From the NCBI RefSeq assembly GCF_026626745.1, contig NZ_JAPNJW010000002.1:1446151-1510150 (forward strand): a DNA stretch of 64,000 bases, in the 5' to 3' direction. The position numbers were made by a program, and so were the translations under genes. Below the pieces are notes generated by a model. The model saw nothing but the letters and a program-made list of their open reading frames with translations, was not told where the DNA came from and did no database searches. Positions 1 through 50,227 of the stretch are shown in pieces (within the stretch, counting starts at the first letter, position 1; every line of letters begins with the position of its first letter). Origin of the DNA: Nannocystis sp. RBIL2. GTDB lineage: Bacteria > Myxococcota_A > Polyangia > Nannocystales > Nannocystaceae.

Positions 1-1
1 C

Positions 2-3000
2 GACATTCCCTACGCCACGCTGGCCCAGGCCTTCGAGGGTCTGATCCGCCAGATCCTGGGCGAGAGCGAAGCGAGGATCGGGCAGTGGCGGGACGCTCTG
101 CGCGAGGCGCTGGGCCCGAGCGGTCAGCTCATGGTGAACCTCGTCCCCGAGCTCGAGCTCGTCATCGGGCCACAGCCGGAGGTCGAGGAGCTGCCGCCCC
201 AGGAGGCGCAGCACCGCTTTCAGATGGTGTTCCGGCGGCTCATTGGCGTCTTCGCCCGGGCCGCGCATCCGCTGGTGCTCTTCCTCGACGACCTGCAGTG
301 GCTGGACGCGGGGACGCTGGCCCTGCTCGCCGATCTGGCGACCCACCCGGACGTGCATCACCTCCTCCTGGTCGGGGCCTACCGCGACAACGAGGTCGAC
401 CGCAGCCACCCGCTGATGCGCAGCCTGGAGGCGATCCGCGAGGCGGGCGGCATGGTGCGGGAGATCGTCCTGGCCCCGCTGGCGCGGGAAGACGTGGAGC
501 GGCTCATCGCCGATGCGCTCCATGGTCCGCCCGAGCGGGCCCGGCCGCTCTCGCAACTGGTGTTCGAGAAGACCGGCGGCAATCCGTTCTTCACCATCCA
601 GTTCCTGACGACCCTGGCCGAGGAGAAGCTATTGCGCTTCGACCCCGGTAGCGGGACCTGGACCTGGGATCTGCCGCGCATCCACGCCAAGGGCTACACG
701 GACAACGTGGTGGACCTGATGCTGGGCAAGCTCGCCCGCCTGCCGGGGGACACGCAGGAGGCCCTGAAACAGTTCGCCTGTCTCGGAAACATCGTGGACT
801 TCGGGACACTCGGCCTCGTGCTCGAGCGACCGGCGGAGGCGATCCACGCCGCCTTCTGGGCGGCCGTGCGGGCGGGCCTCGTCTTCCGGCAAGACGAAGG
901 CTACATCTTTCTCCACGACCGAGTTCAGGAGGCGGCCTATTCGCTGATCCCTGAAGAGCTGCGCGCCGGGACCCACCTGCGCATCGGCCGAATCCTGGCT
1001 TCGAAGCTGACGCCTGACGAGATCGCCGAACAGATCTTCGATGTCGTCAATCAGCTCAATCGCGGCAGCGAGCTGGTCGGGTCGCAAGAGGAGCGGGAGC
1101 GGATCGCCGAGCTCAATCTGATGGCCGGCAAACGCGCCAGGAGGGCGACAGCCTATGCGTCGGCCTTGACCTACCTCGCCGCCGGCGCGGCGCTGCTCAC
1201 CGAGGACCGCTGGGAGCGCCTGTACGGGCTCACCTTCGCGCTGGAGCTCCACCGGGCGGAATGCGAGTTCCTGACCGGCGCGCTGGAGGCGGCGGAGCAG
1301 CGGCTGGCGATGCTCTGGGGTCGGGCCGAAAGCGTCGTCGACCAGGCGGCCGTCACCTGCCTGCGCCTGGATGTGTATATGAACCTCGACCGGAGCGACC
1401 GCGCCGTCGCCGTCGCTCTCGATTACCTCCGACATATGGGCGTCGACTGGTCGCCGCATCCGACAGAAGAGGAAGCGCGACGCGAATACGAGCGGATCTG
1501 GTCCCAGCTCGGGGAGCGCACGATCGAGGAGCTCATCGACCTGCCCTTGATGACCGACCCGGCATCCCTCGCTACTCTGGATGTCCTGACCAAAGTCGCG
1601 TCGCCTGCGGTCCTCACGGATGTGAGGCTGTTCGCCCTGGTCGCCTGCAGGGCCGTGAATTTGAGCCTCGAGCACGGCAACAGCGATGGTTCGTGCCTCG
1701 CATATCCCAACGTCGGCATGGTCGCCGGGCCGCTCTTCAGTCACTCCGAGGCTGGATTCCGGTTCGGTCAGCTCGGCTACGAACTGGTCGAACGACGCGG
1801 GTTGAAGCGCTTCCAGGGCAGGACTTACATGGTCTTCGGAACCATGGTCATGCCGTGGATGAGGCCTGTGCGGGCTGGCCGTGACCTGGCGCGTCGCGCC
1901 TTCGAGGCGGCGAATGAGACCGGTGACCTCACGTTCGCCGCATGCAGCTGTTTCCAGCTGAACAGCATCAGGCTCACGGCAGGAGATCCGCTCGTCGAGG
2001 TGCAACGCGAAGCCGAGGATGGCCTGGAGTTCGCCCAGAAGGCGCGGTTCGGCTTCGCCGCGGACATCATCACCGCGCAGCTCCAGCTCGTCCGGACGCT
2101 GCGCGGCGCGACGCCGACATTCGGCTCCTTCGACGACGGGCAGTTCGACGAGCGGCGGTTCGAGCGCCATTTGGCGAACAATCCGGTGCTGGCGCAGGCC
2201 GAGTGCCGCTACTGGATCGAGAAGCTGCAGGCGCGCTTCTTCGCCGGCGATCATGGGGCCGCCGTCGCGGCAGCATCGAGGGCGCAGCAGTTGCTCTGGA
2301 CATTGCCATCATTCATCGAGACGGCAGACTATCACTTTTACGGCGCGCTGTCTCACGCCGCCTCCTGCGATGCCACCGCGGCCAGCCAACGGCAGCAGCA
2401 TGTCGAAGCTCTGGCCGCCCACCGCGAAGCGCTCGCGAGATGGGCTCGGGATTGCCCGGAGAATTTCGAGAACCGCGCTGCGTTGGTGGACGCCGAGCTC
2501 GCGCGCGTTTCGGGCCGCGACCTCGATGCCATGCGCCTCTACGAGCGGGCCATCCGCTCGGCCCACGACAACGGCTTCGTGCAGAACGAGGCGCTGGCCA
2601 ACGAGCTGGCCGGCCGGTTCTATCTCGACCGCGGCCTCGACAAGAACGGCTTTGCCCATCTCCGCGACGCGCGCGCCTGTTATGCCCTGTGGGGGGCCGA
2701 CGGCAAAGTGAAGCAGCTCGACCGGCAACATCCCCGGCTCTTCGAGCCCAGGACCTTCGCGCCCACCGCCACCGTCGCGGTTCGGCCCGTCGAGCTCGAC
2801 CTCTACTCGGTGACCAAGGCCTCGCAGACCATCTCGAGCGAGATCGTCCTCGACAAGCTGGTGCGCACGCTGCTCGCTATCGTGCTCGAGCAGGGCGGCG
2901 CGCAGAGGGCTTGCCTCGTCCTGTGTCGCGACGAGAGCCTCTCGATCGAGGCGGAGGCGACCCTCGAACACAAGGGGTTGGTGACGACCGTCCTCGAGCC

Positions 3001-4540
3001 CGCGCCCGTGGATGGTTCCCAGCGCCTCCCTGCGTCCGTCGTCCACTATGCGCACCGGACGAAGGAACGCGTCATTTTGAGCGACGCCGCCGCCGACGCC
3101 GATAAGCTCGGCGGCGACGACTACTTCGCCCGGCACCGGCCCAAGTCGGTCCTCTGTATGCCGATCCTGCGGCAGGCCGAGGTGGTCGGGCTGCTCTACC
3201 TCGAGAACAACCTCCTCGCCGGCGCCTTCACGCCCGATCGGCTCGTCGCCCTCTCGCTCTGCGCCACGCAGGCGGCCATCTCGCTCGAGAACGCGTTGCT
3301 CCTCCAGCGCGCGGCCTTCCTGGCCGAGGCCGGGAAGATCCTGTCCGCGTCCCTCGATTACGAGCAGACGCTGGACCGCCTCGGACGGCTGTGCGTGCGA
3401 TCGATCTGCGACTTTTGCCTGATCGACGTCGTGGAGGCCGGGGGGATCCAGCGCGTCTCCGGGGCACACAAGGATCCCGCGAAGGAGCGATTGATCGAGG
3501 AGCTCCAGCGGCGGTATCCCCCTCGCTGGGACTCGCCCCACCCGGCGGCCGTGGTCCTCAGGACGGGTGCGCCGCTCCTGTTCCCTCGGCTCCCCGACGA
3601 GCACATGCGAACGATCACCGTGGACGACGAGCACAAGAGGTTGCTCCGCGAGCTCGGGGCACAGAGCTCCATGATGGTGCCGCTCGTGGCGCGCGGGCAG
3701 ACGCTCGGGGTGCTGAGCATCGTCTCGGCCGTGCCGGGCCGCTACGGGCGCGCCGATCTCGAGCTGGCGCAGGAAGCAGCGTGCCGCGCCGCGACCGCGA
3801 TCGACAACGCACGTCTCTACCGCGCCTCTCAGGAGGCCGTCCGCGCACGGAGCGAGTTCCTCACCGTCGCTTCCCACGAGCTGAACACCCCGGTGACCTC
3901 GCTCATGCTCGCGCTCGAGTCCTTGCGCCGGGCGACGCTCTTGGGGCGGCCCATGGATCCGCAAACCGTCGACAGGCTGGTCGAGCTCGCCGGGCGGCAG
4001 GGAGCCCGACTGACCAGGCTCACCAACGATCTGCTCGACGTCTCGCGGATGGAGGCGGGGCCATTGCCGCTGGAGCTCACCGATGTCGACCTCGTCGCCC
4101 TCGTCCGCGAGGTGGCCGAGCGCTTCGAGATGGATCTTACGCGCGCCCGCTGCCCGGTGTCGATCGATAGCGGCGCTCCGGTCGTGGGGAGATGGGATCG
4201 CTCCCGTATCGACCGGGTCGTGACCAACCTGCTCTCCAATGCCATCAAGTTCGGGGCCGGCGAGCCCATCGAGCTCTTCGTCGGCGCGGAGGGCGGCGTG
4301 GCGCGGCTCGCGGTCCGGGACCACGGCATCGGCATCGCCCCGGAGCAGCGCGACCGGATCTTCGGGCGCTTCGAGCGTGCGGTGTCGGAGAAGCACTACG
4401 GGGGCCTGGGCCTCGGGCTGTACATCAGCCGCAGGCTCGTCGAGGCCCACGGCGGGTCGATCCGATGCGTCAGCCCCCCAGGCGCCGGGGCCACGTTCAT
4501 CGTCGAGCTGCCGGTCTCCGTCGGCCGTGATAAGCCGTGA
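2..4540 (+). CDS. Multidomain sensor kinase, 5'-partial (AAA_16-type ATPase / GAF / HisKA / HATPase_c). The reading frame is open to the window start, so the N-terminus (probably a kinase domain and P-loop) lies outside the window.
   Basis: The frame is continuous from nt 2. A Walker-B-like motif 'VLFLDDLQWLD' is present. The GAF-like region contains 'VLCMPILRQAEVVGLLYLEN'. The H-box is 'SHELNTPVTSL'. The HATPase N/G boxes are 'LLSNAIKFG', 'DHGIGI' and 'GLGLGLYISRRLVEAHGG'. GC3 is high. Confidence 0.8.
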   Translation, partial: DIPYATLAQAFEGLIRQILGESEARIGQWRDALREALGPSGQLMVNLVPELELVIGPQPEVEELPPQEAQHRFQMVFRRLIGVFARAAHPLVLFLDDLQWLDAGTLALLADLATHPDVHHLLLVGAYRDNEVDRSHPLMRSLEAIREAGGMVREIVLAPLAREDVERLIADALHGPPERARPLSQLVFEKTGGNPFFTIQFLTTLAEEKLLRFDPGSGTWTWDLPRIHAKGYTDNVVDLMLGKLARLPGDTQEALKQFACLGNIVDFGTLGLVLERPAEAIHAAFWAAVRAGLVFRQDEGYIFLHDRVQEAAYSLIPEELRAGTHLRIGRILASKLTPDEIAEQIFDVVNQLNRGSELVGSQEERERIAELNLMAGKRARRATAYASALTYLAAGAALLTEDRWERLYGLTFALELHRAECEFLTGALEAAEQRLAMLWGRAESVVDQAAVTCLRLDVYMNLDRSDRAVAVALDYLRHMGVDWSPHPTEEEARREYERIWSQLGERTIEELIDLPLMTDPASLATLDVLTKVASPAVLTDVRLFALVACRAVNLSLEHGNSDGSCLAYPNVGMVAGPLFSHSEAGFRFGQLGYELVERRGLKRFQGRTYMVFGTMVMPWMRPVRAGRDLARRAFEAANETGDLTFAACSCFQLNSIRLTAGDPLVEVQREAEDGLEFAQKARFGFAADIITAQLQLVRTLRGATPTFGSFDDGQFDERRFERHLANNPVLAQAECRYWIEKLQARFFAGDHGAAVAAASRAQQLLWTLPSFIETADYHFYGALSHAASCDATAASQRQQHVEALAAHREALARWARDCPENFENRAALVDAELARVSGRDLDAMRLYERAIRSAHDNGFVQNEALANELAGRFYLDRGLDKNGFAHLRDARACYALWGADGKVKQLDRQHPRLFEPRTFAPTATVAVRPVELDLYSVTKASQTISSEIVLDKLVRTLLAIVLEQGGAQRACLVLCRDESLSIEAEATLEHKGLVTTVLEPAPVDGSQRLPASVVHYAHRTKERVILSDAAADADKLGGDDYFARHRPKSVLCMPILRQAEVVGLLYLENNLLAGAFTPDRLVALSLCATQAAISLENALLLQRAAFLAEAGKILSASLDYEQTLDRLGRLCVRSICDFCLIDVVEAGGIQRVSGAHKDPAKERLIEELQRRYPPRWDSPHPAAVVLRTGAPLLFPRLPDEHMRTITVDDEHKRLLRELGAQSSMMVPLVARGQTLGVLSIVSAVPGRYGRADLELAQEAACRAATAIDNARLYRASQEAVRARSEFLTVASHELNTPVTSLMLALESLRRATLLGRPMDPQTVDRLVELAGRQGARLTRLTNDLLDVSRMEAGPLPLELTDVDLVALVREVAERFEMDLTRARCPVSIDSGAPVVGRWDRSRIDRVVTNLLSNAIKFGAGEPIELFVGAEGGVARLAVRDHGIGIAPEQRDRIFGRFERAVSEKHYGGLGLGLYISRRLVEAHGGSIRCVSPPGAGATFIVELPVSVGRDKP

Positions 4541-5161
4541 TCGAGGCGAGCACCGGCTGCCGAGCAAATCGTCGGACCTCGCCCGGGGACGCGTCGAACG
4601 ACCCGGCCCCGGGCGGCGCGTTCGAGTCGTCCGCGCACGCCGCGAGGACGTCGTCGGACGTCGCTCGGGAGCGGGCGACGTCCGCCTGGACTGGCCTGGG
4701 CATGCCCCTCCAAGATCATATGGGCGCTTTCGCGCAAGCTGGCTCAGCCGTGTCCGAGGGGCCTTGATCCAGTCGCAGAGGATCAAGACGTCATGGACCT
4801 GCTGTGACAGCATGAGCAAGACCATCCGCGAGGCGCTCGCAGCGACCGCGACCTGGGCGCCGAGGCGGCGCCTGCAAGCCCAGGCGCCTCCCGAAGACTC
4901 CTGGTGGGGCGACTCCGGGGGTGTGCGCTGCGCCGCCGCAGGGGGCGCCTCGTTCACGGTTCGGTACGGCGGCCCGGTCGAGTCGAGGAAACCGGCGTAC
5001 CCCGAATGGGAGTAGCGGACCGCACAGGGTCGTTCGTTGTCCGCCAGAGTCCGCCTTCTCTCAGGCGGTGACGACGCTCCCCCGGCGAGCGCGCGAACCG
5101 CCTCGCAGCCACACGAGCCAGACGCGAGCCCGCGCGCAGCGGCTCAGTAGATTTCACGACC

Positions 5162-5722
5162 ATGGACGACATGCTCCGTCATCAGCGCCCCATGGTCATG
5201 GCCAACATCATCACCGGCGCCACCGGCGTAGCCGCGACGGCCATCCCCTCGCGCTCCGTCGAGGCTTCGCGCGCGGCGGCGTCCATCGGCCTGCAATGTG
5301 CCCATCATTGGACCGGCGACGCCGCCCGAGCGACGGCGACCCGGGCCACAATGTCCCATCTCCTGCGAGCCACGATCCGGATCGGTGCAATTGGGCTTGC
5401 CGTCGACGCCACCGTCGGCGCGGTCAAGGGTCTGCTCGCCTACCAGCGCGGAGAGATGACCGGCGAACAAGCGTGTGCGCACGCGGCCGTCGAAGCCGGC
5501 ACCCGCGTCGTATCGACCTCGGCTGGCGTACTCCTCGCGGCCTGCGCGGTCGCCCTCACTGGCGGTCTCGCTGCCCCCGTGCTCCTGACCATCGGGAAAG
5601 GCGGTGCAGCCGCCACGAGGCTCGGTCTACGCCGCCTGCTCGACGCGCGGAGCTCACGGTCACCCCAGGGAGCCTCTGCTGCGGTCGCTACCCCGGATCT
5701 ACGCGTCGTCAACGACGGGTGA
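5162..5722 (+). CDS. Hypothetical small Ala/Gly-rich protein, possibly membrane-associated.
   Basis: ATG-initiated 186-aa ORF with mostly GC-rich third codon positions. No recognisable domain. Shadow ORFs overlap on other frames. Confidence 0.3.
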   Translation: MDDMLRHQRPMVMANIITGATGVAATAIPSRSVEASRAAASIGLQCAHHWTGDAARATATRATMSHLLRATIRIGAIGLAVDATVGAVKGLLAYQRGEMTGEQACAHAAVEAGTRVVSTSAGVLLAACAVALTGGLAAPVLLTIGKGGAAATRLGLRRLLDARSSRSPQGASAAVATPDLRVVNDG

Positions 5723-5808
5723 GCAGCACGCACAGCCAAACCTCGTCGCTGCGGCGCCCGGGCCGAGGTGAGGTGATGTCCAGCGTGCCGCCCCGTGGAC
5801 ATGTCTTA

Positions 5809-6915
5809 TTATTCGCAGGCGACGCGCACGTCGACGACCTCGCCGGAGCGCTGCTGGCCGGCGGTGCGGTAGACGAAGCTGGCGCGCTCGAGGCCGCAGT
5901 TGCCGCGCGCATCGCACTCGCGGCGAGTGGTGAAGCCGAGGTCGATCTCGACGATCTCGAAGCTCGCGAGCGGCAGCATCTCCCACCCGCTCGAGCGACG
6001 GTCGGCGTCGTGGTCGGCCCACAGCATCAGCTCGCCCCAGTGCGCGTCCGCGGCGGTGATCTTGCCGTCGCGGTCGCTGTCGAGCTCGGCGAGGGCCTGG
6101 AAGCCGTTATGCACACCTGACCCGAAGGACAGGCGGGTGGCGGCGCCGAACAGCTCCTGGCCGCCGTCGATGCTGCCGTTGCCGTCGCGGTCGAGCGCGA
6201 GCCACGGGGTGGCGGCGGTCGGCCAGTCGGCGCGGGCGCAGCTGCCCGCGCCGCCGTGGATGTCGAAGTCGGCCGCCGAGGCGGAGGTCGGTGCGAACTC
6301 GATGGCGTCGCCGAAGCTCAGCACCAGCGGGGTGTTGCAGTCTTCCCAGTTCCACACGTGGCGGCCGGTCTCCTCGTCGACCATGCAGCCCATGTCGATG
6401 TCGAATTCTTCCTCGCCGAAGCCGCACGACTGGCTGTCGCCCGGCTTGCACTCGTCGGCCTCGCCGCACTCGCCCCAGCGCGTCTCGCCGGTGTCGGGGG
6501 TCGCCTCGTAAGCGACGCAGTGCTGGGTGCCGCCGTCACAGGCACGCGAGTCGCCCTCCTTGGCGCACGTCTCCGTCAGACAGGCGGTCCAGATGTGGCT
6601 GTACTGATCGAGCGACCAGACGCAGAACTCGAGGCCGGCGACGCCGCCGATCTGACACTCGCCAGACAGCTGGGACTGGTCGCAGATCTCGCCCGCACGG
6701 CCGAAGTCCGCCTTGGGCTCGGGCTCGGGCTCGCCTTCGTCCTCACTCTTGATCTCGCCCTCGCTGTCGCCCTCGCCTTCTTCGGCGCCCTCGCTGTCGG
6801 CCTCGCCGGCCGTGGAGTCGCCGTCGTTCGCGTGGTGACCCTCGACCTTCGAATCACAGGCCGGCAATGCGAGGAAGAGCGAGGACAAGGTGAGGAGGCG
6901 GGTCGTGGTCGTCAT
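5809..6915 (-). CDS. Secreted lipoprotein with EF-hand-like calcium-binding loops.
   Basis: Signal peptide plus lipobox 'LFLALPAC'. Acidic Glu/Asp-rich linker. Two canonical EF-hand loops, 'DRDGNGSIDGGQE' and 'DSDRDGKITAADAHWGE'. Multiple Cys. Strong GC3 bias. Confidence 0.7.
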   Translation of the reverse strand: MTTTTRLLTLSSLFLALPACDSKVEGHHANDGDSTAGEADSEGAEEGEGDSEGEIKSEDEGEPEPEPKADFGRAGEICDQSQLSGECQIGGVAGLEFCVWSLDQYSHIWTACLTETCAKEGDSRACDGGTQHCVAYEATPDTGETRWGECGEADECKPGDSQSCGFGEEEFDIDMGCMVDEETGRHVWNWEDCNTPLVLSFGDAIEFAPTSASAADFDIHGGAGSCARADWPTAATPWLALDRDGNGSIDGGQELFGAATRLSFGSGVHNGFQALAELDSDRDGKITAADAHWGELMLWADHDADRRSSGWEMLPLASFEIVEIDLGFTTRRECDARGNCGLERASFVYRTAGQQRSGEVVDVRVACE

Positions 6916-7340
6916 GCGGATGTCGCCTTAGCAGGGGCCGTGCCAAGCCGCCCAGGGGACGTGCAGGCGACGTGGACGCCGTTTGCAGCGCGGGTCGGAG
7001 AAGCCCCTGCGACGAGGCTGGAGCCCACCGGCGTCCTGGTCTGACGGGAGTGTCGTGCGCTCTCGCCGGGGCGAGCCACGCCAGCGACGGCCGGCGGGCG
7101 TCGGCCAGCATCGCGGCCGAGCGGGTCGAATCGCGGGCGCACATCTTCGAGGGAGCCGAGGCGAGCGGGCACCAGCGCTGGCGACTTCGGGATCTGCGCC
7201 CCCGCCGCGGACGGAGAGGCGGTCCCTCGCTGAGAGCGCGCAGGCGCCCTCGAGCACCTCGCTCCGGTGCAGGTGCGCCCCGCCCCATATTAAAAGCGCG
7301 GGCGCCAAAGCCCCCTGCAGCCGCGCGCAGCCTCGCCTTC

Positions 7341-8726: not shown

Positions 8727-10046
8727 TCATCGCTTCGGCGGCCTGTACCCCGACACGATCGTCCGCTTGCGCCCCTCGAGCTTGTCGAGCTGCGCCTCGA
8801 GCCCCTCGCGGCGGGCGTACGCGCGGGCCAAAATCAGCGCCACGTACTCGCCGAGCGAGTCGGCCGCGATCGTGGCCACCAGCGCCTGATCGTGGCGGAA
8901 GCGGATCACCGGCGCCGCGTTCGCCTCCGACTTCGCCCCCGTCGCCAGGAAGAACAGGTCGCCGGACGGATCGCTGCCGAGCGGGATGGCCTTCTTCGCC
9001 GGATCGAAGCCGCGCACGTCGTAGCGCCCGCGGCCGCTCGGCGGGTCGTCTGCCTCCTCCTCGTCGTCCTCGATCGTCCCCCTCATTTCGCGGAACAGCT
9101 GGCGCATGCGCGCCGGCGGCCCGAAGTCGCGCGATCCGAGCGCCGCGTGCGTCGCCAGCAATTGCCTCAATTCCTGCGGCAGCCGGGCGCTCACGTGATT
9201 CGCCAGCGCCTCGATCTCGCGCGCCCGCGCCGGTCCCTTCGCCGCCACCTCGGCCGGCGTCAGCTCCCACGCGGTCATCAGCGCCAGCGCCTCCGCCACC
9301 GTGTGCGGCAGCTGCTTCGGCAGCCTCGCCAGCACGATCCCCGGCGCCATCGCCTTCGGGATGAGCTTCGCCCGCAGCAGCAGCGCTCGCAGCCTGTCCG
9401 CCCCCGAGCCCGTGATCGTGGCAGTCGCCGCCACCAGCCGCGCCAGGGCCACCGGGGCCGCCGGCCCGCGGTTCGCCGGGAGCAGCGAGTTCCCGTCCGC
9501 CAGCACGCGGAACAGCAGCCACAGCCGCTCGTCGTTCCACTCGATCTTCATCAACCCGTCCGCGACCGCCTCGCCGTCCGCGTACGCCAGCAAGCGGCTC
9601 ACCGCCTCGCCCGCCAGCTTGAACCCGACCTCGTTGTTCGGGTTGTACTCGCCGAGCGCTTCGATCGCCGCTCGCGTCGTCCGCCGCAGCCCGCTGTCCA
9701 GCAGCGCCACCAGCAGCGGGATCGCCGACAACCCCAGCGTCGCCGCCGGCCGGAAGCCGTGCGGCACCCCGAGAGTCTCCGGATGGGCCGCGATCGCCCG
9801 CAGGAACGGCCCCGCGAGCCCCTCCAGCGTCGACGATCGATCGGCCCCCTCGACCTCGAGGAACACGTCGAACGCCTTGAACGCCACGCTGCCGGGCCGC
9901 GGCCAGCCCTCGCGGCACGCCGGCGCCGCGGCCAGCGCCTCCAGCTCGCGCATCAGCGATCCAGCCGCCGCCGCGTCCCCGCCCGCGGCCGCCGTCGCCA
10001 ACCCCGTCAATCGCGCCTCGAGCTCCGCGTACGTCCCGGTCTGCAT
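8727..10046 (-). CDS. Hypothetical protein whose C-terminus resembles the SMI1/KNR4 (SUKH) family. The N-terminal part is helical-repeat-like.
   Basis: The C-terminus 'IPLGSDPSGDLFFLATG...VIRFRHDQALVATIAADSLGEYVALIL' matches the SMI1/KNR4 pattern as recalled (G.DG.G...HD....A.SF.EFL). The start is uncertain: M at 10046, or upstream up to 10121. Confidence 0.55.
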   Translation of the reverse strand: MQTGTYAELEARLTGLATAAAGGDAAAAGSLMRELEALAAAPACREGWPRPGSVAFKAFDVFLEVEGADRSSTLEGLAGPFLRAIAAHPETLGVPHGFRPAATLGLSAIPLLVALLDSGLRRTTRAAIEALGEYNPNNEVGFKLAGEAVSRLLAYADGEAVADGLMKIEWNDERLWLLFRVLADGNSLLPANRGPAAPVALARLVAATATITGSGADRLRALLLRAKLIPKAMAPGIVLARLPKQLPHTVAEALALMTAWELTPAEVAAKGPARAREIEALANHVSARLPQELRQLLATHAALGSRDFGPPARMRQLFREMRGTIEDDEEEADDPPSGRGRYDVRGFDPAKKAIPLGSDPSGDLFFLATGAKSEANAAPVIRFRHDQALVATIAADSLGEYVALILARAYARREGLEAQLDKLEGRKRTIVSGYRPPKR

Positions 10047-10190: not shown

Positions 10191-11498
10191 ATGTCGCGCT
10201 GCCTGTCCCTGGCCCTGGTCCTCGCCCTCGCCGCCCCGCCTGCGGCCGCCCACCCGCTGGCGCGCCCCCCCGGCCCGGGCGCCTGGCAGCCCGCCGGGCC
10301 CTCGGGACATGTCTCGGATGACATGCCCGAGAGGACACCCTCGCTGGCCCTCCCGTCGGCGGCCGCTCCGTCCTCCGCCGCCACCCACCTGTCCCCAGGG
10401 ATATCCGCCCTGGCCGCGGCCCCGACCGTCCCGCCGCCCGCCTCTGCGCACCTGTCCCCAGAGACAGGCCTCCTGACCACGATCCCACCCGCCAACCTGG
10501 CCCTACGGACAGCCGTCACGCCATCGCCCGCCCCGCCCCTCGAAGACACGTCCTCGGGGACAGCCAATCCGGCCGCCCCCGGCGACATGTCCCCCGGGAC
10601 AGCCGCCCCCGCCCCGCTCGATCCCTCCCCAAATGCCCCGGAAGACATGTCCTCCGGGACATCTCCGCCGCCCGTCCCCACCACCCCCGCCGCCGATCCC
10701 CCGCTCCCGCCCGCGCCGCCGGCCCTCCCGCCGCACCTCATGCGCCTGCGGCCGGCCGTCGACGTCCCCGTCATCGCCCTCGGCCTCGTCATGTGGCTCG
10801 GCACCGATCTCGCGGCTCGCGACATGCGCTGGTCCGGCTGTCAGACCTGCGACCGCAGCCACATCAACGGCCTCGATCGGCGCGTCCTCGGCAACGAGAG
10901 CCTCGCGGCCGCCCACGCCTCCGACGCCCTCCTCTACACCGCGATCGCCGCCCCGATCGTCGCCGACCTCGCCGACACCCTCGTCGCCGGCCGCCGCGCC
11001 CCCGGCTCCTACCGCCACGCCGCCGGCGGCTGGGCCCGCGACGTGGTCGTCCTGTTCGAGGTCCTCGCCGTCAACGTCGGCCTCAACAACCTCGTCAAGT
11101 ACGCCGTGCGCCGCCCGCGGCCCTACAGCTACGAGCCCGAGAGCGACCTCGGAGACGTCCAGGCCGAGGAGGCGCGCCTGTCCTTTTATTCAGGTCACAC
11201 CTCGACCGCCTTCGCCATGATGAGCGCCTGGGCCACCCTCTTCACCCTGCGTCACCCGCGGGCCCGCGCCGCCGTCCCGGCCTGGCTGGTCGCAGTCGGC
11301 CTCGCCGCCACCACCGGCGTCCTGCGCGTCGAGGCCGGCAAGCACTTCTGGACCGACGTCTTGTTCGGCTCCGTCGCCGGCACCGCCATCGGCGTCCTCG
11401 TCCCGCTGCTCCACCGCAACGATCGCGGCCGCCGCTTCTCCGCCGGCATGAGCCCCACCCCGCGCGGCGCCCTCGTCAGCCTCACCGGCCGCTTCTGA
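10191..11498 (+). CDS. PAP2-family phosphatase with an N-terminal signal peptide and a Pro-rich low-complexity region. An alternative internal start at 10741 would give a 252-aa membrane PAP2 protein.
   Basis: PAP2 motifs 'KYAVRRPRP', 'SFYSGHTS' and 'HFWTDV'. Signal-like 'MSRCLSLALVLALAAPPAAA'. The Pro-rich segment carries repeated 'DMSPGT' units encoded by palindromic DNA motifs (see findings). Confidence 0.75.
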   Translation: MSRCLSLALVLALAAPPAAAHPLARPPGPGAWQPAGPSGHVSDDMPERTPSLALPSAAAPSSAATHLSPGISALAAAPTVPPPASAHLSPETGLLTTIPPANLALRTAVTPSPAPPLEDTSSGTANPAAPGDMSPGTAAPAPLDPSPNAPEDMSSGTSPPPVPTTPAADPPLPPAPPALPPHLMRLRPAVDVPVIALGLVMWLGTDLAARDMRWSGCQTCDRSHINGLDRRVLGNESLAAAHASDALLYTAIAAPIVADLADTLVAGRRAPGSYRHAAGGWARDVVVLFEVLAVNVGLNNLVKYAVRRPRPYSYEPESDLGDVQAEEARLSFYSGHTSTAFAMMSAWATLFTLRHPRARAAVPAWLVAVGLAATTGVLRVEAGKHFWTDVLFGSVAGTAIGVLVPLLHRNDRGRRFSAGMSPTPRGALVSLTGRF

Positions 11499-12669: not shown

Positions 12670-13832
12670 ACCCGGCACGCCACCGAGCTCCAATCACCGA
12701 ATCATGGCACCGCCCACGCGAGCCTCCGTCGCCGGAATCATCATCGTCGTCGCCCTGCCTCCGCGCGCGATGAGGCCTCACACGATCGTCTCCGGAAGAC
12801 GCACGCAGCCCGAATCGTGAATCGCGTCTGTCGGCGGGCCAGCCCTGACCGTCGAATAGACGCTCCTGTCGTCGTCACGCCCCGGACCCGCGCGCCCATG
12901 CGCGAGCGATTTTTTTTCGACCGCGCGCTGCGACAACGGATCCGTCCGCCTGTCATGCCCGCAGGAGGCCGGATCACGCCAGCGTCGTGCTCGACCGCGG
13001 CCTCCGCCTGCGCCACGTCGCGAGCCTGCGCGGCCGTCGACTGCATCGAGCGATACACCTGCACCTCGCTGCCTGACCTGCCGGAACCCCGTCATCCTCA
13101 TCGAGCACGAGCGACGAATCGCCCTGCCCGCTATCGCCATTCGTCATTCTGCGCTTGCCGATGCCCATTGCATGCAGCATCGCGTCAGCTCTCGTCGGCG
13201 CCCACCAGAATATCGGCGCATCGGGCATCCCGCGAGCACGATCGCCCCGATCCCCCATCACGACAATCACGGCACCGAAGCCGAGCACCGTCCCCGAAAA
13301 CATCATCGTCATCTCTCGCCACCCGAGTTCCCCGAGTCCTCACACCAATCGTCTCCGACAGACGCACGCCGCCCGGTTCGTGAAATGGCGTCTGTTCGGC
13401 GGCCAGCCCTGGCCGTCGAACAGACGCCTCGCGCTCTCCGCCAGGCAGCCTCTGCATCGAAGCCCACGACGGCGTGCGGGCCTCTCACGGCTGCAGCCGT
13501 GCCAGGGGTCCGGGGAAGCGGCGGCCGCGAATTAGAGGCGAGATGGGCGCGAGGAACGAGTGTCCATCTCGCCGGTTAACTCGCGGCCGCCGCTTCCCCG
13601 GACCCCCCGCGAGGCGCAGTCGGCAATATGCTGACCGCCGAGCCCCCCGCGCAGAATCCCTCACCCATTCACGAGCGCGACAGCGCCCCGACGATCGGGC
13701 CTTCCGCCCCCAATCGCCGACCCTCCGTGTCCCGCCACGCGCGCGATCTTGCCCACGGTCACCTGTCCGCCCGCAAACCACACGCCAGGGCGGCCGTGGT
13801 ACCTTGGGCGGCCCCGCTCGCGGCCCACGCCC

Positions 13833-16800
13833 ATGCCCGAAACCGCCGTCGCGCCCAAGCGCCAGCCCTCGCCTCACGATCTGCCTTGCCCGCTGCCGCC
13901 CGTGGCTCATGGAGAGCCGCCCGAGCTCGGGGCGTTTCGCGCCAAGCCCAGCGACGACGCCTTCTTGAAGCTGCGACGGGCCTTCCGCGAGGCCGAGAAC
14001 TGGAGCGCCCTCGCCACCTTGCTCGTCGTGCACGCTGCAGCGATCAGTGGCCCGCCGAAGGTCGCCGAGCTGTGCGTCCAGGCCTACGAGCTCTGGTACG
14101 ACCGCGTCAAGGACAAGCCCCAGGCCGCCTACGCCCTCGTGCGCGCCCTCCAGGCCGAGCCGCACAACAGCCGCGCCTACGAGCAACTGCGCAAGGTCTA
14201 CGGCGAGCTCGGCAGCCTCGACGAGCTTGCCACCTTGCTCAAGTTCCGCCTCGACCACCTGCGGCGGCACGATCGGGGCGCGGTCCCTGGCGCGCTCGTC
14301 GAGCTCGGCAAGGTCGACGAGCAGCGCTGTCAGGTCGACGAGGCCATCGCTTGCTACAGGGCCGCGCTCGAGATCAACCCCCAGGAGCGCGACGCCAGCG
14401 ATCAGCTCATCCGGCTTCATCTCCAGGCTGGCGCCTGGCTGCGCGTCATCGATCTGATCAACGCCGAGCTCGCGCGCACCGACAACGTCCGCGAGCGCGA
14501 CCGCTTCGCCGCCCTTCACCTCCGCCTCGCGCGGATCGAGGCCGAGCAGCTCGAGAACATCCCCTCCGCCGCGCTCCACCTGCAGGCCGCGCTCAAGGCC
14601 AACCCTGACGACGTCGCCGCCCTGCGGGCCTTCGGCGCCCTCTACCTCGGCAGCGGCAAGGCCAGCGACGAGGGCCTGCAGAAGGCCGCCGACGTGTTCT
14701 TCCGCGCCGCCAAGCTCGCGCGCAGCCAGGGCGACGACAAGATCGCCTACAGCCTGCTGCGCCGGGCCATGAGCCTGCGTCCCGACCATCACGAGGCCGG
14801 CAACGCCCTCGCCGAGCTGTTGATGGCGCAGGAGAAGTGGATGGAGCTCGACGACCTCTACGGGGCGTGGATCGGCTATGTCACCGAGGCCGACAGCTAC
14901 GGCCTGTGGCTGTCGCGCGGCGAGCTGCTCGAGACTCGCCTCGCCCGCCGCGAGGAGGCCCGCGCCTGCTACGAGCAGGCCTCGCGGCTCGAGCGGCCCG
15001 GCGGCGACGCCTGGCTGCGCCTCGAGGCCTTGCTGGTCGAGCTCGGCGACAACCACGGCCTCGTCAGCCTGTACGAGCGCTGGTCCGAGCAGGACCCCGG
15101 CGGTCTGCCGACCGACAAGCTGCTGTGGGCCGCCCGCGTCGCCCGCGAGGACCTCGGCGACGAGGAGCGGGCCGCGGTCAGCTTCTACCGCGTGCTCGAG
15201 CGCGAGCCCTTCAATCACGAGGCCTTCGAGGGCTACAAGGAGCACTGGCGGCGCAAGAACAACTGGTCGCACCTCGCCGGCCTCATCCTCTACCAGGGCG
15301 ACCAGGCCCTGCAGATGGGCGGCGGCCCGGACAGCCCGCTCGCTCGCTCCGAGTTCGCCGAGCACTTCGTCGAGCTGGCCGAGATCTACGAGCGCCGCCT
15401 CGGCGACCTCGCCGGCGCCCTCGACGCCTGGAACCGGCTCGCCCTCGCCTACCCCAACGACTGGCGCCCGCGCGACCAGATCGCCCGCATCGACAAGCGC
15501 GCGCGCATGCTCGACGCCAACCTCGCCACCCTCGAGGCCGAGCTGCAGCGCACCGTCGATCCGCAGCGCCGCTTCGAGGTGTTGCGCCGGCTGTCGCAGG
15601 CCCACCGCGAGCGCATGACCGACCCCCAGCGCACCATCGTCCTGCTGCAGGAGATGCTGGCGCTCGCGCCCGGCCACGAGGGGGCCCTGCGCGCGCTCGC
15701 CGAGATGTACGAACGGACAGGTGCTTACGACCAGGTCATCGACCTGCTGCGGCGCCAGCACGACGTCACCCGCAGCATCTCGCAGCGCGTGGTCCTGCTG
15801 CGGCGCATGGCCGAGCTGTGGCAGCACGAGCTGCACAGCCCGCGCGAGGCGCTGTGGGCCTGCGAGCAGATCCTCGGCTACAGCCCGTCGGACATGGACG
15901 CGGTCCACCGCATGCAGGGCTTGTGCGCCGAGCTCGGCGACGCCGGCGGCGAGTACGAGGCGCTGTCGCGCGAGCTCGGCCTCGTCGGAGACCCGGCCCA
16001 GCGCACCCGCATCATCCGGCGCATGGCCGATGTCGCCGACCGCAAGCTGCAGGACCCGCAGCGCTCGGCCCAGGCGTGGACGCAGCTGCAGGCCGGCGAC
16101 CCGCACAACCTCGAGGTCACCGACAAGCTGATCGCCGCCTACGAGGCGCTCGGCAACCGCGAGGAGCTCGCCAACCTGCTCGGCAAGGCCGCCAGCTCGG
16201 CCCGCACCCCGCCGATCCGCCAGCTCGACTATCTCATGCGCCTGGGCCACGTCGCCGAGTCGTCGCTCGGCGACGCCGACCTGGCCTGCTCGGCCTTCGA
16301 GCGCGCGCTGCGGATCCACCGCGACCACCGCGGCGCCACCGAGGCGCTGACCCGCCTCTACCGCAACCTCGGCAGCTGGCACGGCCTGGCCGCCTCGCTC
16401 GGCACCCTGCAGGACATGGCCGACAGCGACGAGGAGGCGCTCGGCATCGGCTGGGAGCGCGCCGAGGTCCTGGCCGACCGGCTCGACAACCCGGCCGCCG
16501 CCATCCGCGTGCTCGAGCAGCTCAGCTCGAACGCCGCCGTCGGCAACCGCGACGTCGCCCTCAAGCTGCTCGAGCTGTACGAGCGCGCCGGCCAGTTCGA
16601 CCGCCTGATCCGCCACGCCGAGATCCTCCTGCTCTCGGCGCTCGAGACCGACGAGCGGCGCGAGCTGTTCTCGCTGGTCGCCCGCACCTACGTCGTCAAC
16701 CTCAACGCCCCGCACAAGGCCATCGCCGCCTTCCAGCGGTTCATGCGCGAGGAGCCCGACGACGGCGAGGGCCTCAAGATCCTCGGCGAGCTGCAGGCGC

Positions 16801-23450: not shown

Positions 23451-23472
23451 CGCGCCCCTGAGGCCGTCCTCG

Positions 23473-23504
23473 AGGCCGCGAGCCCGCCAGGGGCTCGCGG
23501 CCTC
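23473..23504 (+). terminator. Stem-loop immediately downstream of the giant TPR gene.
   Basis: Perfect 14-bp stem 'gaggccgcgagccc'/'gggctcgcggcctc' with loop 'gcca', 23 nt after the stop. A 'tctttt' tract follows about 30 nt later. Confidence 0.5.
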
Positions 23505-23595
23505 GTCGCATTCCCACGCCCCTGTCTTTTGATTCAGCTCGCCTCGCCTCGCGCCTCTTGCGGCCCCGGCTGAATCGTGGACAAATCCCTCGAAC

Positions 23596-25703: not shown

Positions 25704-25960
25704 CCTGTCCCACAGACCAGGTCCGCCCGCGCGACCGCCACCGCGGGCCGGACCTGTCCCACCGGCCAGGTCCGGCCGCCCCGGGCGGACGCGCGAACGG
25801 CTCCGTGGCCAGAACCTGCCCCATCGGCCAGGTCCGGCCGGACCGGCCGGACGACCGCGCCGCGAGCGAGCAGAGCCGCCCTCGCGCGGCTCCCGGCGGC
25901 CCGTTCGCCCGCCGTCCGACCAGCGTCGCGCCGCCGCCCCGGACCGGCTACCATCCCCGC

Positions 25961-28646: not shown

Positions 28647-28719
28647 GGCCTGGGCTTTGAGAATCGCGTGACTGCGCTCGCAGTTCGTCTGAGGCAGACA
28701 TTCTGCCGACACACGAGAG

Positions 28720-28744
28720 CCCGCGAGTCCCCAGGACTCGCGGG
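28720..28744 (+). terminator. Stem-loop downstream of the DUF1554 lipoprotein gene.
   Basis: Perfect 11-bp stem 'cccgcgagtcc'/'ggactcgcggg' with a 3-nt loop, 74 nt after the stop. No clear T-tract follows. Confidence 0.4.
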
Positions 28745-28773
28745 CGTCGACCTGCGTCCGCAGCTTCGAGCAG

Positions 28774-47479: not shown

Positions 47480-47785
47480 GCCGCCGGCCCAGCGCTCACC
47501 GACCGCAGCGGTTCGCGAGCACCTCGACCGCTCCGAAGCGACCGCCGCGCCACGACCCCGTCATTGCGCGGACGGCGTCGCATCAGTCGCCGCGGTTCGC
47601 TAGCGGCCGCGCCCGCGTGCGACCGCATGCACCACGCACCTGCTCGTGCTGCATCACGCGCGTAGAGCCCTCGCCCGCGGTTTGCCGCTCATTCGCCCTG
47701 CCGGGTCCGAAGCCCGTCCGATCGTTCGCGCGCACGGCCGGCAAATCGGTGAGCCGCCGCGATCCGCTCGCGCGACTGCAGCATC

Positions 47786-49264
47786 ATGATTCGCCCTCAC
47801 CACCGCCAACCGCGCCACCTGCTCGGCGCCGTGCTCCTCGTCCTCGGCGCTTGCAAGCCCGCCGAGCTCGACCCCTTCGACACCGACGGCGCCACCGACC
47901 CCGGCGGCACCGTCGACCCCGGCGGCACCGTCGACCCCGGCACCACGAGCACCGACACCGGCCCCGCCGAATCGACCTCCGGCGTGAGCACGACCGCCGA
48001 CCTGACCACCACCGACACCACCGGCGACGAGCCGCTGCCGAGCTGCGAGGGTCCGGTCACCGACTGCAAGCTGGACCTGGATCGCGACGGCGTGATGTTC
48101 CACTGCGACAACGCCCCCGATCACTTCAACCCTGACCAGTCGGACGTCGACGGTGACGGCTTCGGCGACGTCGCCGATCTGTGCCCGACCCTCCCGGTCG
48201 GCGAGCCCAAGGCCGACAGCGACAAGGACGGCATCGGCAACGCCTGCGACCTGTGCGTGAAGGCGGCCGCGCACTACAACGACACCGACGCGCCGATCTC
48301 CGAGCGCATGAAGGTGCGCAACATCCCGAGCACCGCCGACAGCGATCGCGACGGCATCGGCGACGCCTGCGACAACTGCGTGCGCACCCCCAATTGCCAG
48401 GACTACGGCGAGGGCCTCGATCCATACGAGCTCGGCGACCCGATCGCGTTCGACGGCGACGACTGCCAGATCGACGCCGACAAGGATCTCGTCGGCGACG
48501 CCTGCGCCGGCACCATGCTGCCGGGCGCTGCCGGCCCGGTCGGCTTCGGCCTCGACGACGACTTCGACCAGGACGGCCTGCGCAACGGGGACGACGGCTG
48601 CCCGCGCCAGCCCGTGGCGCTGCAGGCGTGCGACGACGACGCCGACTGCCCGGCCGCCAGCAAGTGCGTCCAGGGCCAGTGCGGCCACGCCGACTTCGAC
48701 GGAGACGACATCGGCGACATCTGCGACACCTGCCCCTACGTCGGCAACCCGCAGCAAGTGCAGATGGGCCATGCGGAGGAGAACGACCAGGACGGCGACT
48801 TCGTCGGCTTCAACTGCGAGACCACGCTGGACGCCGACCTCACCCCCGACCCGCGCCGGATCGGCTTCTACGACCTCAGCGCCAACGGCTATTGCTGCGT
48901 CCGCCTCCACCCCGCCGGCACCACTCTCGATCCCGACGGCGACACGGTGCCGCTGCCCGCCAAAGTCCTCAACCAACCAGGCGTCGTCCAACTCCCGCCC
49001 GGCTGCGCGCAGGAGGGCCAGCCGCTGAACGGCACCGTCGACCTCGCCACCTTGTGGGCCAGCTTCTGCCTCATGCCGCAATCGGACCAGGACTTCGACG
49101 GCCTCGGCGACGTGGTCGACCTGTGCCCCTTCTCGTTCGACCCCGCCAACACCGTCTACGTCGACGACGAGAACATGCAATGGGAGAACTACGGCGAGTT
49201 CTGCCTCGGGGAGTACAGCCCGGAGCACCTCGACCCGGCGATGATGTGCCTCCCGGGCACCTGA
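47786..49264 (+). CDS. Lipoprotein with thrombospondin type-3 (calcium-binding) repeats.
   Basis: Lipobox 'LVLGAC'. Thr-rich linker. At least 7 'DxDxDGxxDxCD(N/L)C' units, for example 'DLDRDGVMFHCDNAPD', 'DSDKDGIGNACDLC' and 'DSDRDGIGDACDNC'. Confidence 0.8.
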   Translation: MIRPHHRQPRHLLGAVLLVLGACKPAELDPFDTDGATDPGGTVDPGGTVDPGTTSTDTGPAESTSGVSTTADLTTTDTTGDEPLPSCEGPVTDCKLDLDRDGVMFHCDNAPDHFNPDQSDVDGDGFGDVADLCPTLPVGEPKADSDKDGIGNACDLCVKAAAHYNDTDAPISERMKVRNIPSTADSDRDGIGDACDNCVRTPNCQDYGEGLDPYELGDPIAFDGDDCQIDADKDLVGDACAGTMLPGAAGPVGFGLDDDFDQDGLRNGDDGCPRQPVALQACDDDADCPAASKCVQGQCGHADFDGDDIGDICDTCPYVGNPQQVQMGHAEENDQDGDFVGFNCETTLDADLTPDPRRIGFYDLSANGYCCVRLHPAGTTLDPDGDTVPLPAKVLNQPGVVQLPPGCAQEGQPLNGTVDLATLWASFCLMPQSDQDFDGLGDVVDLCPFSFDPANTVYVDDENMQWENYGEFCLGEYSPEHLDPAMMCLPGT

Positions 49265-49443
49265 TCGACGAGCCCGCCGCGGCGCGGACGACCGGGCCGC
49301 GGCGTCGACCGCCGCTCGGCAAAAATGCCTTTACCGCGACCCGGACCGGGAGCCTCGGCGCGGTATGATGAATGGACGGATTCCGACGACACCGCAGCCC
49401 TCTCGGCGCCGGGCCCGCGAATCGCCGCAACGCAAAACGACGC

Positions 49444-49479
49444 GGCGCGCCTGCAGGTCACGGGACCTGCAGACGCGCC
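49444..49479 (-). terminator. Rho-independent-type terminator downstream of csbD, possibly bidirectional.
   Basis: 16-bp stem with one mismatch, 'ggcgcgcctgcaggtc'/'gacctgcagacgcgcc', and loop 'acgg'. On the minus strand it is followed by 'CGTCGTTTTGCG'. It lies 39 nt after the csbD stop. Confidence 0.6.
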
Positions 49480-49517
49480 GAATCGCATCGCAGAGCGGCG
49501 CGGAGCGCCCACATTCG

Positions 49518-49724
49518 TCACAGGTTGCTGTTGTTTTCGGCCTTGTAGCCCAGCTTGCGCTCGATCTCTTCGCGGCGCTCCCCCGAGCGCTCCTGAATGA
49601 TCCCGCACAGCTTGTCGGCGTTGCCTTCGGCCTTGAGGAAATCGTCGTCGGTCAGGTTCCCCCAGAACTGCTTCGCCTTGCCCTTGAGCTGCTCCCACTT
49701 CCCCTGGATCTGATCGCGGTTCAT
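49518..49724 (-). CDS. csbD: CsbD-family stress-response protein.
   Basis: '[58 protein letters not shown]' matches the CsbD consensus closely. Length 68 aa. Confidence 0.85.
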
Positions 49725-50227
49725 GGTCGGTTTCTCCGCCCACCAGTTTGATCGCGGTTGCACCGCGCGCTCGCCCGACTAGCGCCAGCAAACGGCGCCA
49801 GGCGCTCGTCACGGCCCTTGTCATGCCGTCGATTTCGGCGGCGCGTTCGCCATTCCCACCGTTCGCGCGCACGACGCAGCCCGATCGTACGAATCACGGG
49901 CGCAGCGGACTCGGCCGTGTGAACCGCCTCCGCCTCGGCCTCGGCGCCGTTCTGCCGGGGATGCGGGCGTGGAGACGGGGGTATCGCCTGGCCCGCAGGG
50001 GAGACACCGATCGTCGCAGCGCCCTTTCATACGCGTCATGCGAAACATCACCCGCCCTGCCGCGCTCGGCCTCCCTGCGCGTCCCGCCACGAATCATGCT
50101 TCGTGCGAATGATATACCCTCACGGGCTGCGGCGGCCGGACCGGCCACGCGCTCGTCGGAGGTTCGCCGCGCAGCGGCCATCGGCCGGCGGGGCGCCTCG
50201 GACACCGCGGACACTAAGGAGCATCGG

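Follow-up and report, generated by a model that had tools for sequence, protein, structure and literature searches.

Between the stop codon of a ferritin-like gene (12669) and the ATG of a giant TPR gene (13834), the 64,000-nucleotide window of Nannocystis DNA analysed here carries a gap of about 1.1 kb, positions 12670-13833, that is structured and non-coding. We propose, with a probability of roughly 0.6, that this stretch is the emptied shell of a strain-variable accessory-gene slot and not a purpose-built regulatory or RNA-gene region, and that it is non-coding because the slot lost its gene. The window has a GC content of 72%, and its proteins place the DNA in Nannocystis (myxobacterial family Nannocystaceae).

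Seven Nannocystis loci were compared, the orthologous loci being obtained through homologues of both flanking proteins. They are labelled as follows: L004, L005 (Na p29), L010 and L030 are from N. pusilla, L006/L007 from N. exedens, L029 from N. bainbridge and L011 from another Nannocystis strain; L001 and L003 belong to more distant Nannocystaceae. In L004, L005, L010 and L030, two direct repeats (rep1 and rep2) bracket a gene for a 259/260-aa cysteine-rich (Cys-rich) protein with a signal or lipoprotein leader, and the order in this N. pusilla type is rep1, an upstream module, the 259-aa Cys-rich gene, a variable filler, rep2 and a long hairpin (LH). N. exedens has a 502-aa gene in the slot and L011 an 84-aa and a 285-aa gene, and the repeats and the LH are absent from both. 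Homology to the window ends on the left at 12670 in L011 and at 12687 in N. exedens, and starts again on the right at 13671 in N. exedens and at 13696 in L011. The TPR gene itself is 97.7% identical to that of the window at the DNA level in L011 and 95.5% identical in N. exedens. Such closeness despite unrelated slot contents indicates that ~12670-13695 is an exchangeable island and not a conserved TPR control region, and the interval from 12669 to ~13671-13696 is, by this comparison, a hypervariable accessory-gene slot. A preliminary description of this DNA had suggested that the whole region might be a complex regulatory region for the TPR gene; that suggestion does not hold, as L011 and N. 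exedens lack everything from ~12670/12688 to ~13671/13696 and carry unrelated genes instead.

Under the slot reading, the window would retain a set of remnants: a decaying rep1, the lost gene's upstream module, its 3' flank, rep2 with an intact 20-bp hairpin, the 57-bp hairpin, and the TPR promoter in the last ~140 nt. From left to right, the features are the following.

12678-12863, + strand: rep1 (repeat copy 1), with its core at 12775-12863 and a degenerate terminal hairpin; it begins 9 nt past the ferritin-like stop codon.
12865-13041, + strand: upstream module of the lost 259-aa Cys-rich gene, which runs into the ribosome-binding site and ATG of that gene in L004, L005, L010 and L030.
13042-13064, no strand: deletion junction, ~23 nt of filler where relatives carry the Cys-rich gene (e.g. 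L004 11253-12072).
13065-13242, + strand: the lost gene's 3' flank, common to L004 and L030, replaced by unrelated low-GC genes in L005 and L010.
13243-13427, + strand: rep2 (repeat copy 2), ending in a near-perfect hairpin with a 20-bp stem at 13387-13428.
13486-13501, no strand: perfect 16-bp palindrome CACGGCTGCAGCCGTG, predicted base of the LH, invariant in the window, L004, L005 and L030.
13488-13622, + strand: LH, 57 predicted base pairs with a 9-nt loop.
13623-13695, no strand: fast-evolving, indel-rich spacer (34.7% variable and 27 gapped columns), which holds the slot's right boundary.
13696-13833, + strand: TPR promoter-proximal region, 90.8-96.7% identical to the N. pusilla strains and N. 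exedens.

The trace of gene loss lies at the deletion junction. Homology to L004 and L005 on its left ends at ~13035-13041, and homology to L004 and L030 on its right resumes at 13059-13071. Here, ~23 nt stand in place of the ~820 bp that in L004/L030 contain the 259-aa gene and its ribosome-binding site, the lost piece reaching from just before the ribosome-binding site to a few dozen nucleotides past the stop codon. Flanking-gene identity is 95.5% between the window and L004, 95.0% between L005 and L010, and ~91.7% between the two pairs. The window is thus sister to L004, with L005/L010 forming the other branch, and since all three relatives have the gene, a single loss of the Cys-rich gene in the window lineage, at junction 13041/13065, is the parsimonious reading. 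The 3' flank (13065-13242) is 85.7% identical to that of L004, and a 4-nt indel breaks its only sizeable minus-strand open reading frame (ORF). A tblastn search with the slot proteins of the relatives (502, 260, 202 and 259 aa) detected no remnant in the region.

This architecture is like that of known strain-variable slots and gene-loss scars in its conserved flanks and in the unrelated cargo, some of it of low GC, found between the same boundaries; as in a gene-loss scar, the gene is still present in the sister strains, whereas in the window only its non-coding flanks are left. It is unlike other strain-variable slots in that no integrase, tRNA gene or obvious att core is found here, and in having a nested second variable interval and an old 186-bp direct duplication that brackets the cargo. 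The nested interval is the filler between the Cys-rich stop codon and rep2, which exists in three mutually unrelated versions in relatives that differ by 2-8% in their flanking genes: 178 nt of non-coding DNA (window, L004 and L030), an 817-nt segment of 57% GC with the gene of a 202-aa HExxH protein (L005), and an 850-nt segment of 59% GC with a 217-aa gene on the opposite strand (L010). All three begin 3-10 nt past the Cys-rich stop codon and end at the left end of rep2, and their junctions agree within ~10-20 nt.

The slot cargo of the relatives (L005 12473-13081; L010 12466-13119, minus strand; L011 2820-4531; L006 11459-12967) consists of orphans, with no Pfam or PADLOC match. The HExxH motif of the 202-aa cargo protein of L005 reads HEAAH, and the inserts of L005, L010 and L011 have a GC content of 57-62%, compared with ~72% for the genome.

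Our analyses of coding potential agree that the stretch is covered by shadow ORFs only, as had been described. An analysis of GC content at third codon positions (GC3) found no frame in 12670-13833 with the signature of a real gene: GC3 is at most 0.85 locally and 0.64-0.74 over whole open frames, compared with 0.88-0.99 in the flanking genes. A Pfam search with the region's three largest ORFs gave no match, and a search for tRNA and tmRNA genes in the region found none. All ORFs longer than 100 aa in the region cross a junction that is interrupted or frameshifted in relatives; the most protein-like of them (minus strand, 12974-13312) was rejected as coding, being frameshifted in L004 and spanning the deletion junction. 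The further statement that this is the longest non-coding stretch of the window is not established, as another stretch, 4541-5808 (1268 nt), is also without a coding-like frame by the same crude test. This second stretch, of ~1.27 kb, lies between two convergent stop codons, has no frame with coding-like GC3 and carries a hairpin at 4580-4615. A third stretch, 49265-50173 (909 nt), downstream of the gene at 47753-49264, has no coding signal and holds an inverted repeat with 37-nt arms at 49423-49500.

The upstream module ties the stretch to the gene that its relatives retain. It is composed of a weak hairpin (12889-12904), a run of eight T residues (T8, 12910-12917), a motif (12927-12968) and then ~70 nt of leader. 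The invariant motif, GCTGCGACA.CG-N9-GCCTGTCATG.CC.CAGGAGG, has fixed spacing in all seven module copies; the window has one occurrence of it (0 expected) and L029 two. The N. bainbridge copies, in which 12865-13034 is conserved, precede two different genes. One, 79.5% identical over 171 nt, precedes the N. bainbridge Cys-rich homologue (71% identical), which sits at another position; the other, 72% identical over 108 nt, precedes the gene of a 141-aa Cys-containing secreted protein, next after the N. bainbridge ferritin-like gene. On L029, the copies at 5828-5984 and 9672-9832 stand before genes of Cys-rich secreted proteins of 255 aa and 141 aa. A short GC hairpin and a T-rich run are kept in 7/7 module copies, with the stem spelled CGCGAC/GTCGCG in N. 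bainbridge copy b.

The T8 run is the longest A/T homopolymer in the 64 kb, in which only five runs of at least 6 occur; its prominence had been recognized before, although it lies at 12910-12917 and not at 12911-12918. The small hairpin that had been reported in front of it is likewise present, and a terminator scan calls the hairpin and T run (one site, 0.6 expected), but the hairpin is no more stable than shuffles (z -0.2). Among the hairpins considered here, it is only 12889-12904 with T8 that fits the consensus of rho-independent terminators, a stem-loop followed by a U tract. An automatic alignment of the module showed no covariation, which makes recognition at the DNA level as likely as an RNA leader, and the module fits neither a sigma-70 -10 element nor sigma-54 spacing. 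We read the module as a terminator or A/T-rich upstream element followed by a promoter or leader. Most likely, the hairpin and T8 terminate transcription of the upstream gene and/or serve as an A/T-rich element upstream of the promoter; they appear better explained by the upstream module of the lost gene than by a small-RNA terminator. A small regulon may share this module as its promoter or leader.

The direct repeat is genuine, its two copies being far more alike than chance would allow: rep1 and rep2 are 76.3% identical over 190 columns (blastn, E 6.6e-27). The two ~90-bp copies of the preliminary description correspond to the better conserved core (12775-12863 and 13338-13427, 84-86% identity), and the full length is ~186 bp. 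The left end of the strain-variable 'type A' island is formed by rep1, which has orthologues in L004, L005, L010 and L030. Orthologous repeat copies are 84-96% identical and paralogous copies ~75% identical; the two copies are evidently old paralogues. They have fared differently: the rep1 hairpin (-17 to -24 kcal/mol, z -0.6 to -2.3) is damaged in a different way strain by strain, and the rep2 hairpin (-39.4 to -40.4 kcal/mol, z -6.5 to -8.8) remains undamaged in all four sequences folded, those of the window, L004, L005 and L010. The arms of the L030 rep2 hairpin, compared by sequence and unfolded, are the same as in L004.

A dispersed REP- or MITE-like element (MITE, miniature inverted-repeat transposable element) had been raised as an explanation of the repeat, and this fails. 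A pattern with 22 specified bases, invariant in the six copies then known, was run against 185,579 species genomes and retrieved nothing beyond the syntenic pair of copies in N. pusilla Na p29, an exact pattern of this kind being able to miss a low-copy or strongly diverged family. No further copies were found in the window or in the other Nannocystis loci, and blastn against plasmids and phages gave no match. The MITE reading of the 186-bp element was also rejected on structural grounds, in that the copies are direct, have internal hairpins and lack terminal inverted repeats and duplicated flanks. Two smaller candidates within the repeat were set aside as well. A sigma-54-like GG-N10-GC in rep1 is not conserved in rep2 or in L005, and an attenuator-like pairing of ACAGACGC with GCGTCTGT has no U tract, its first small hairpin being broken in L005 and L010.

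The left part of the slot shows further rearrangements in the relatives. In L005, 11030-11300 is made of 4-5 tandem units of ~62 nt, each running from the last ferritin-like codons and the stop codon into the left part of rep1. In L004, rep1 contains a tandem duplication of 48 nt (10948-11042) that involves the first half of the repeat core (CACGATCGTC.CCGACAGACGCACGCAGCCCGGATCGTG), and the 3' end of the ferritin-like gene is duplicated in L010 at ~11024-11140. The locus is slippage-prone, and the 186-bp duplication is probably an older product of the same instability.

Downstream of rep2, the structure becomes more pronounced. The perfect 16-bp palindrome at 13486-13501 is present as described, and is by itself unremarkable (10 perfect palindromes of at least 16 bp in the window, compared with ~4 in shuffles). 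The large imperfect palindrome of the same description (arms 13496-13534 and 13577-13615) is confirmed as the 57-pair LH, with a fold of -120.8 kcal/mol (z -13.7; 0/200 shuffles as stable), which no other inverted repeat in the window exceeds in length. The rep2 hairpin and the LH evolve as slowly as coding DNA: variable columns amount to 7.5% in the LH and 30% in the flanking non-coding DNA (four strains, Fisher p 5e-7), to 10.3% in the rep2 core compared with the same 30% (Fisher p 2e-4), and to 6.5% in the TPR coding sequence.

The pattern of change within the LH is informative about the strand. Standard pairs make up 99.1% of the pair cells across the four strains. There are two compensatory double changes, both in L030 (C-G to G-C and A-U to G-C), and four pairs vary on one side only, all of which remain paired as G·U on the + strand. 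Likewise, the window's LH has five imperfect pairs, each of them a G·U on the + strand, with no A·C among them; the + strand folds more stably than the minus strand in every strain, by 6-21 kcal/mol. A randomly decaying DNA palindrome should show both kinds of mismatch, and the restriction to G·U therefore argues for selection on a + strand RNA. The + strand is also the strand of all neighbouring genes. The LH is thus likely to act as a + strand RNA structure. Both it and the rep2 hairpin behave like constrained structures of this kind, and a non-coding transcript is plausible.

We propose that the rep2 hairpin and the LH would act in a + strand RNA whose source is either the upstream genes or the orphaned promoter. 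Probably transcript-end, 3'-protection or RNase III processing structures, they would keep read-through out of the TPR promoter. If the orphaned promoter is still active, it may yield a gene-less transcript of ~500-700 nt ending at the hairpins. Terminators consisting of GC-rich hairpins with no U tract have been proposed for high-GC bacteria. In the window, GC-rich hairpins without T runs stand directly after the stop codons of the TPR gene (23451-23505) and of two other + strand genes (25728-25797, following 25703, and 28692-28761, following 28646); these clean hairpins, for example CGAGGCCGCGAGCCC-GCCAG-GGGCTCGCGGCCTCG, are candidate terminators of this U-tract-less type.

Several points weigh against the slot reading or the RNA function that we attach to its remnants. 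The covariation level of the LH was reached by 32/500 shuffles, with only four sequences at hand, and compensatory changes in a DNA palindrome can arise by arm-to-arm template switching, without selection on RNA. No U tract follows the rep2 hairpin (CTCGCGCTCTCC) or the LH (AATATGCTGACC), so that both miss the canonical definition of an intrinsic terminator; both are also unlike rho-independent terminators in being longer than normal stems and in lying hundreds of nucleotides past the nearest stop codon. In relatives, the LH lies ~450 nt past the Cys-rich stop codon, which is far for a terminator. A crude survey of strong hairpins downstream of stop codons in the window revealed no excess (Mann-Whitney p 0.44), and, because post-stop hairpins are not enriched, the terminator reading of the long hairpins draws only on analogy and strand bias. 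Simple deletion or insertion does not obviously explain three unrelated fillers at the same two junctions. The TPR gene of L004 is split by apparent homopolymer errors, which makes the indels of L004 unreliable. Finally, whether the promoters are active, where transcripts end and which strand is expressed are deduced from sequence.

The alternative that fares best, though we consider it unlikely, is that the region encodes one or two stand-alone trans-acting small RNAs (sRNAs) with their own promoters, either siblings derived from the repeat copies or a single sRNA made up of rep2 and the LH. Sibling sRNAs encoded in tandem are known from other bacteria. The two paralogous copies here share a conserved core of 85-90 nt, and the rep2 hairpin and the LH are constrained, with a preference for the + strand. 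Promoters, however, are missing from the picture: a sigma-70-like scan of the region called none, a sigma-54 scan of the region allowing up to 2 mismatches gave no match, and neither copy is preceded by a conserved -10-like element. Nor does a U-tract terminator follow either copy. RNAalifold found 0 compensatory pairs in the repeat, with an unfavourable covariation term, the rep1 hairpin has decayed in every strain, and the element occurs only at a single locus in a single species group. A search of Rfam 15 at E <= 1 returned only generic miRNA-precursor models on the LH, at 25-40 bits against thresholds of 70-93, and nothing on the repeats; the check for a known RNA family that had been called for thus ends with no match at the gathering threshold. 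The earlier suggestion of one or two small RNAs therefore survives in part: the constrained + strand hairpins make a transcript plausible, but no promoter, Rfam family or covariation speaks for two sRNA genes.

A different origin for the LH alone would be a single miniature inverted-repeat element of the ERIC or Correia type, inserted and co-transcribed, with the rest of the stretch being neutral debris. ERIC, Correia/NEMIS and REP/BIME elements are transcribed and act as mRNA-end, stability or RNase III/RNase E sites. The LH resembles them in its length of ~135 nt, its nearly complete self-complementarity, its position between co-directional genes and its signs of selection as + strand RNA, forming one long hairpin from an imperfect palindrome in the ~100-150-bp range, and it is absent from strains with other slot contents. 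These families, however, are defined by many dispersed copies, and no second copy of the LH was found, either in the 64 kb of the window or in ~100 kb from other Nannocystis loci; target-site duplications are lacking too. A comparison with plasmids and phages gave no match, and a scan of JGI metagenomes with an LH arm returned only chance matches of 21-23 nt, a scan without power, as it also missed the syntenic locus. We regard this origin as improbable.

Just as improbable, in our view, is the possibility that nothing here is functional, and that repeats and hairpins are by-products of a spot prone to duplication and slippage, whose similarity between strains reflects recent common ancestry only. 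The instability is visible in the tandem ~62-nt units of L005, the 48-nt duplication of L004 and the duplicated ferritin 3' end of L010, and the strains are close, their TPR coding sequences being 96-98% identical. Recent ancestry alone would not account for rates that differ within a few hundred nucleotides, from 7.5-10% to 30-38% variable columns, nor for the compensatory changes and a wobble bias that lies entirely on the + strand; the upstream module, moreover, is conserved at other loci in another species.

The coincidence of the filler junctions raises the question of site-directed exchange, at which it hints with low probability. In its strongest form, the left end of rep2 and the hairpins that follow would be a site-specific gene-capture point of a kind undescribed in myxobacteria, which we judge very improbable. 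In a milder novel reading, the 57-bp hairpin and rep2 would belong to a new lineage-specific structured RNA. Slightly less probable than the capture point is that the repeats and hairpins are DNA recombination sites, where a recombinase swaps genes at the left end of rep2 in an attC- or att-like manner. Three unrelated fillers occupy exactly the same interval in strains 2-8% apart in their flanking genes, the inserted genes, at 57-59% GC, fall below the 72% of the genome, and the repeats are direct and hairpin-bearing, with rep1 beginning at the left edge of the island. The likeness to integron attC sites and integrase-less attC clusters (CALIN) extends to direct repeats with imperfect hairpins, small promoter-proximal genes of foreign composition and recurrent junctions. 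On the other hand, there are two repeats whether 0, 1 or 2 genes are present, contrary to the one-site-per-cassette rule of integrons, no integrase is seen, and no recombinase occurs among the genes called within 10 kb in L004, L005, L006, L010 and L030. The window's deletion breakpoints lie inside the interval and not at the repeats. The G·U strand bias is unfit for a double-stranded or cruciform site, but is compatible with a single folded strand of the attC kind, as it is with RNA pairing. Core sites of attC were rejected by eye: in the hairpin, GTTCGGC comes before GTCGAAC, so that its GTT...AAC order is opposite to the R''/R' arrangement RYYYAAC...GTTRRRY, and both are off consensus.

Two other systems can be dismissed briefly, a retron msr/msd, since the next gene encodes the TPR protein and not a reverse transcriptase, and a diversity-generating retroelement, since both copies are non-coding and show all substitution types and indels, and no reverse transcriptase is present. 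The Rfam matches at E <= 1 included no retron msr model, the presence of such a model in Rfam 15 being unchecked.

Returning to the slot reading, only the last ~140 nt of the stretch, which is conserved across Nannocystaceae, looks like the promoter of the TPR gene. An extended -10-like element, TGGTACCTT, lies at 13797-13805. The pattern TG(G/A)TAC(CT/GG)T, spelled TGGTACCTT, TGATACCTT or TGGTACGGT, is found in 7/7 aligned Nannocystaceae loci, ~30 nt before the aligned ATG, and the element agrees with the extended -10 form TGnTAnnnT at a fixed distance that is conserved in relatives. It falls within an imperfect inverted repeat (~13737-13825) that is also present in N. exedens and in which no covariation was seen. 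The conserved TGGTACCTT within this inverted repeat is most likely the TPR promoter.

Elsewhere in the window, TGGCACGGCCCCTGCT at 6930-6945 (minus strand) agrees with the sigma-54 pattern TGGCAC-N5-TTGCW with one mismatch and sits immediately upstream of the gene at 5809-6927 on the minus strand. In the whole window, 14 sigma-54-like matches were found and 15 expected, no more than chance.

The genes on either side of the slot are well conserved. The upstream gene encodes a 362-aa ferritin-like protein with 96% identity to a Nannocystis sp. ILAH1 protein and 82-93% identity to N. pusilla proteins, and the giant TPR protein shares 90% identity in its N-terminus with a protein from a Nannocystis metagenome-assembled genome. 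ATG 13834 is taken as the TPR start because it aligns with the start codon of six relatives, and the right-hand boundary that had been given for the region is therefore correct. The TPR gene is split into several calls in L004 (13027-20840), L005 (13867-21041) and L030 (7620-12780), the DNA being colinear and 96-98% identical; the split calls in these three N. pusilla assemblies are probably frameshift or homopolymer assembly errors, and the indels of all three call for caution.

Further afield, the upstream neighbour of the TPR gene in L001 and L003 is a divergent M16 peptidase gene, where Nannocystis has the ferritin-like gene. A pseudogene of this peptidase was considered as a source of the stretch and rejected, as tblastn found nothing in the window. 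The M16 peptidase genes lie at 843-3671 (minus) in L001, 6821-9400 (minus) in L003 and 1-865 (minus) in L006, and that of N. exedens is ~12.7 kb further upstream of the TPR gene. From this shift in position, Nannocystis appears to have gained an insertion of about nine genes, PAP2 and the ferritin-like gene among them.

To conclude, a repeat- and hairpin-rich "non-coding" stretch that resembled an RNA gene or regulatory hub is, on our reading, the residue of a slot emptied of its gene, and this calls for caution with similar stretches; a handful of close relatives sufficed to resolve almost every feature. Most of what is seen is ordinary genome wear, with no field-changing consequence. The comparison has also provided a likely promoter for the giant TPR gene. 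The LH is a candidate transcript-end or RNase III structure in a phylum whose transcript-end signals are poorly known. The portable module (GCTGCGACA...GCCTGTCATG..CAGGAGG), shared by several small secreted Cys-rich genes, could define a regulon or an alternative-sigma promoter.

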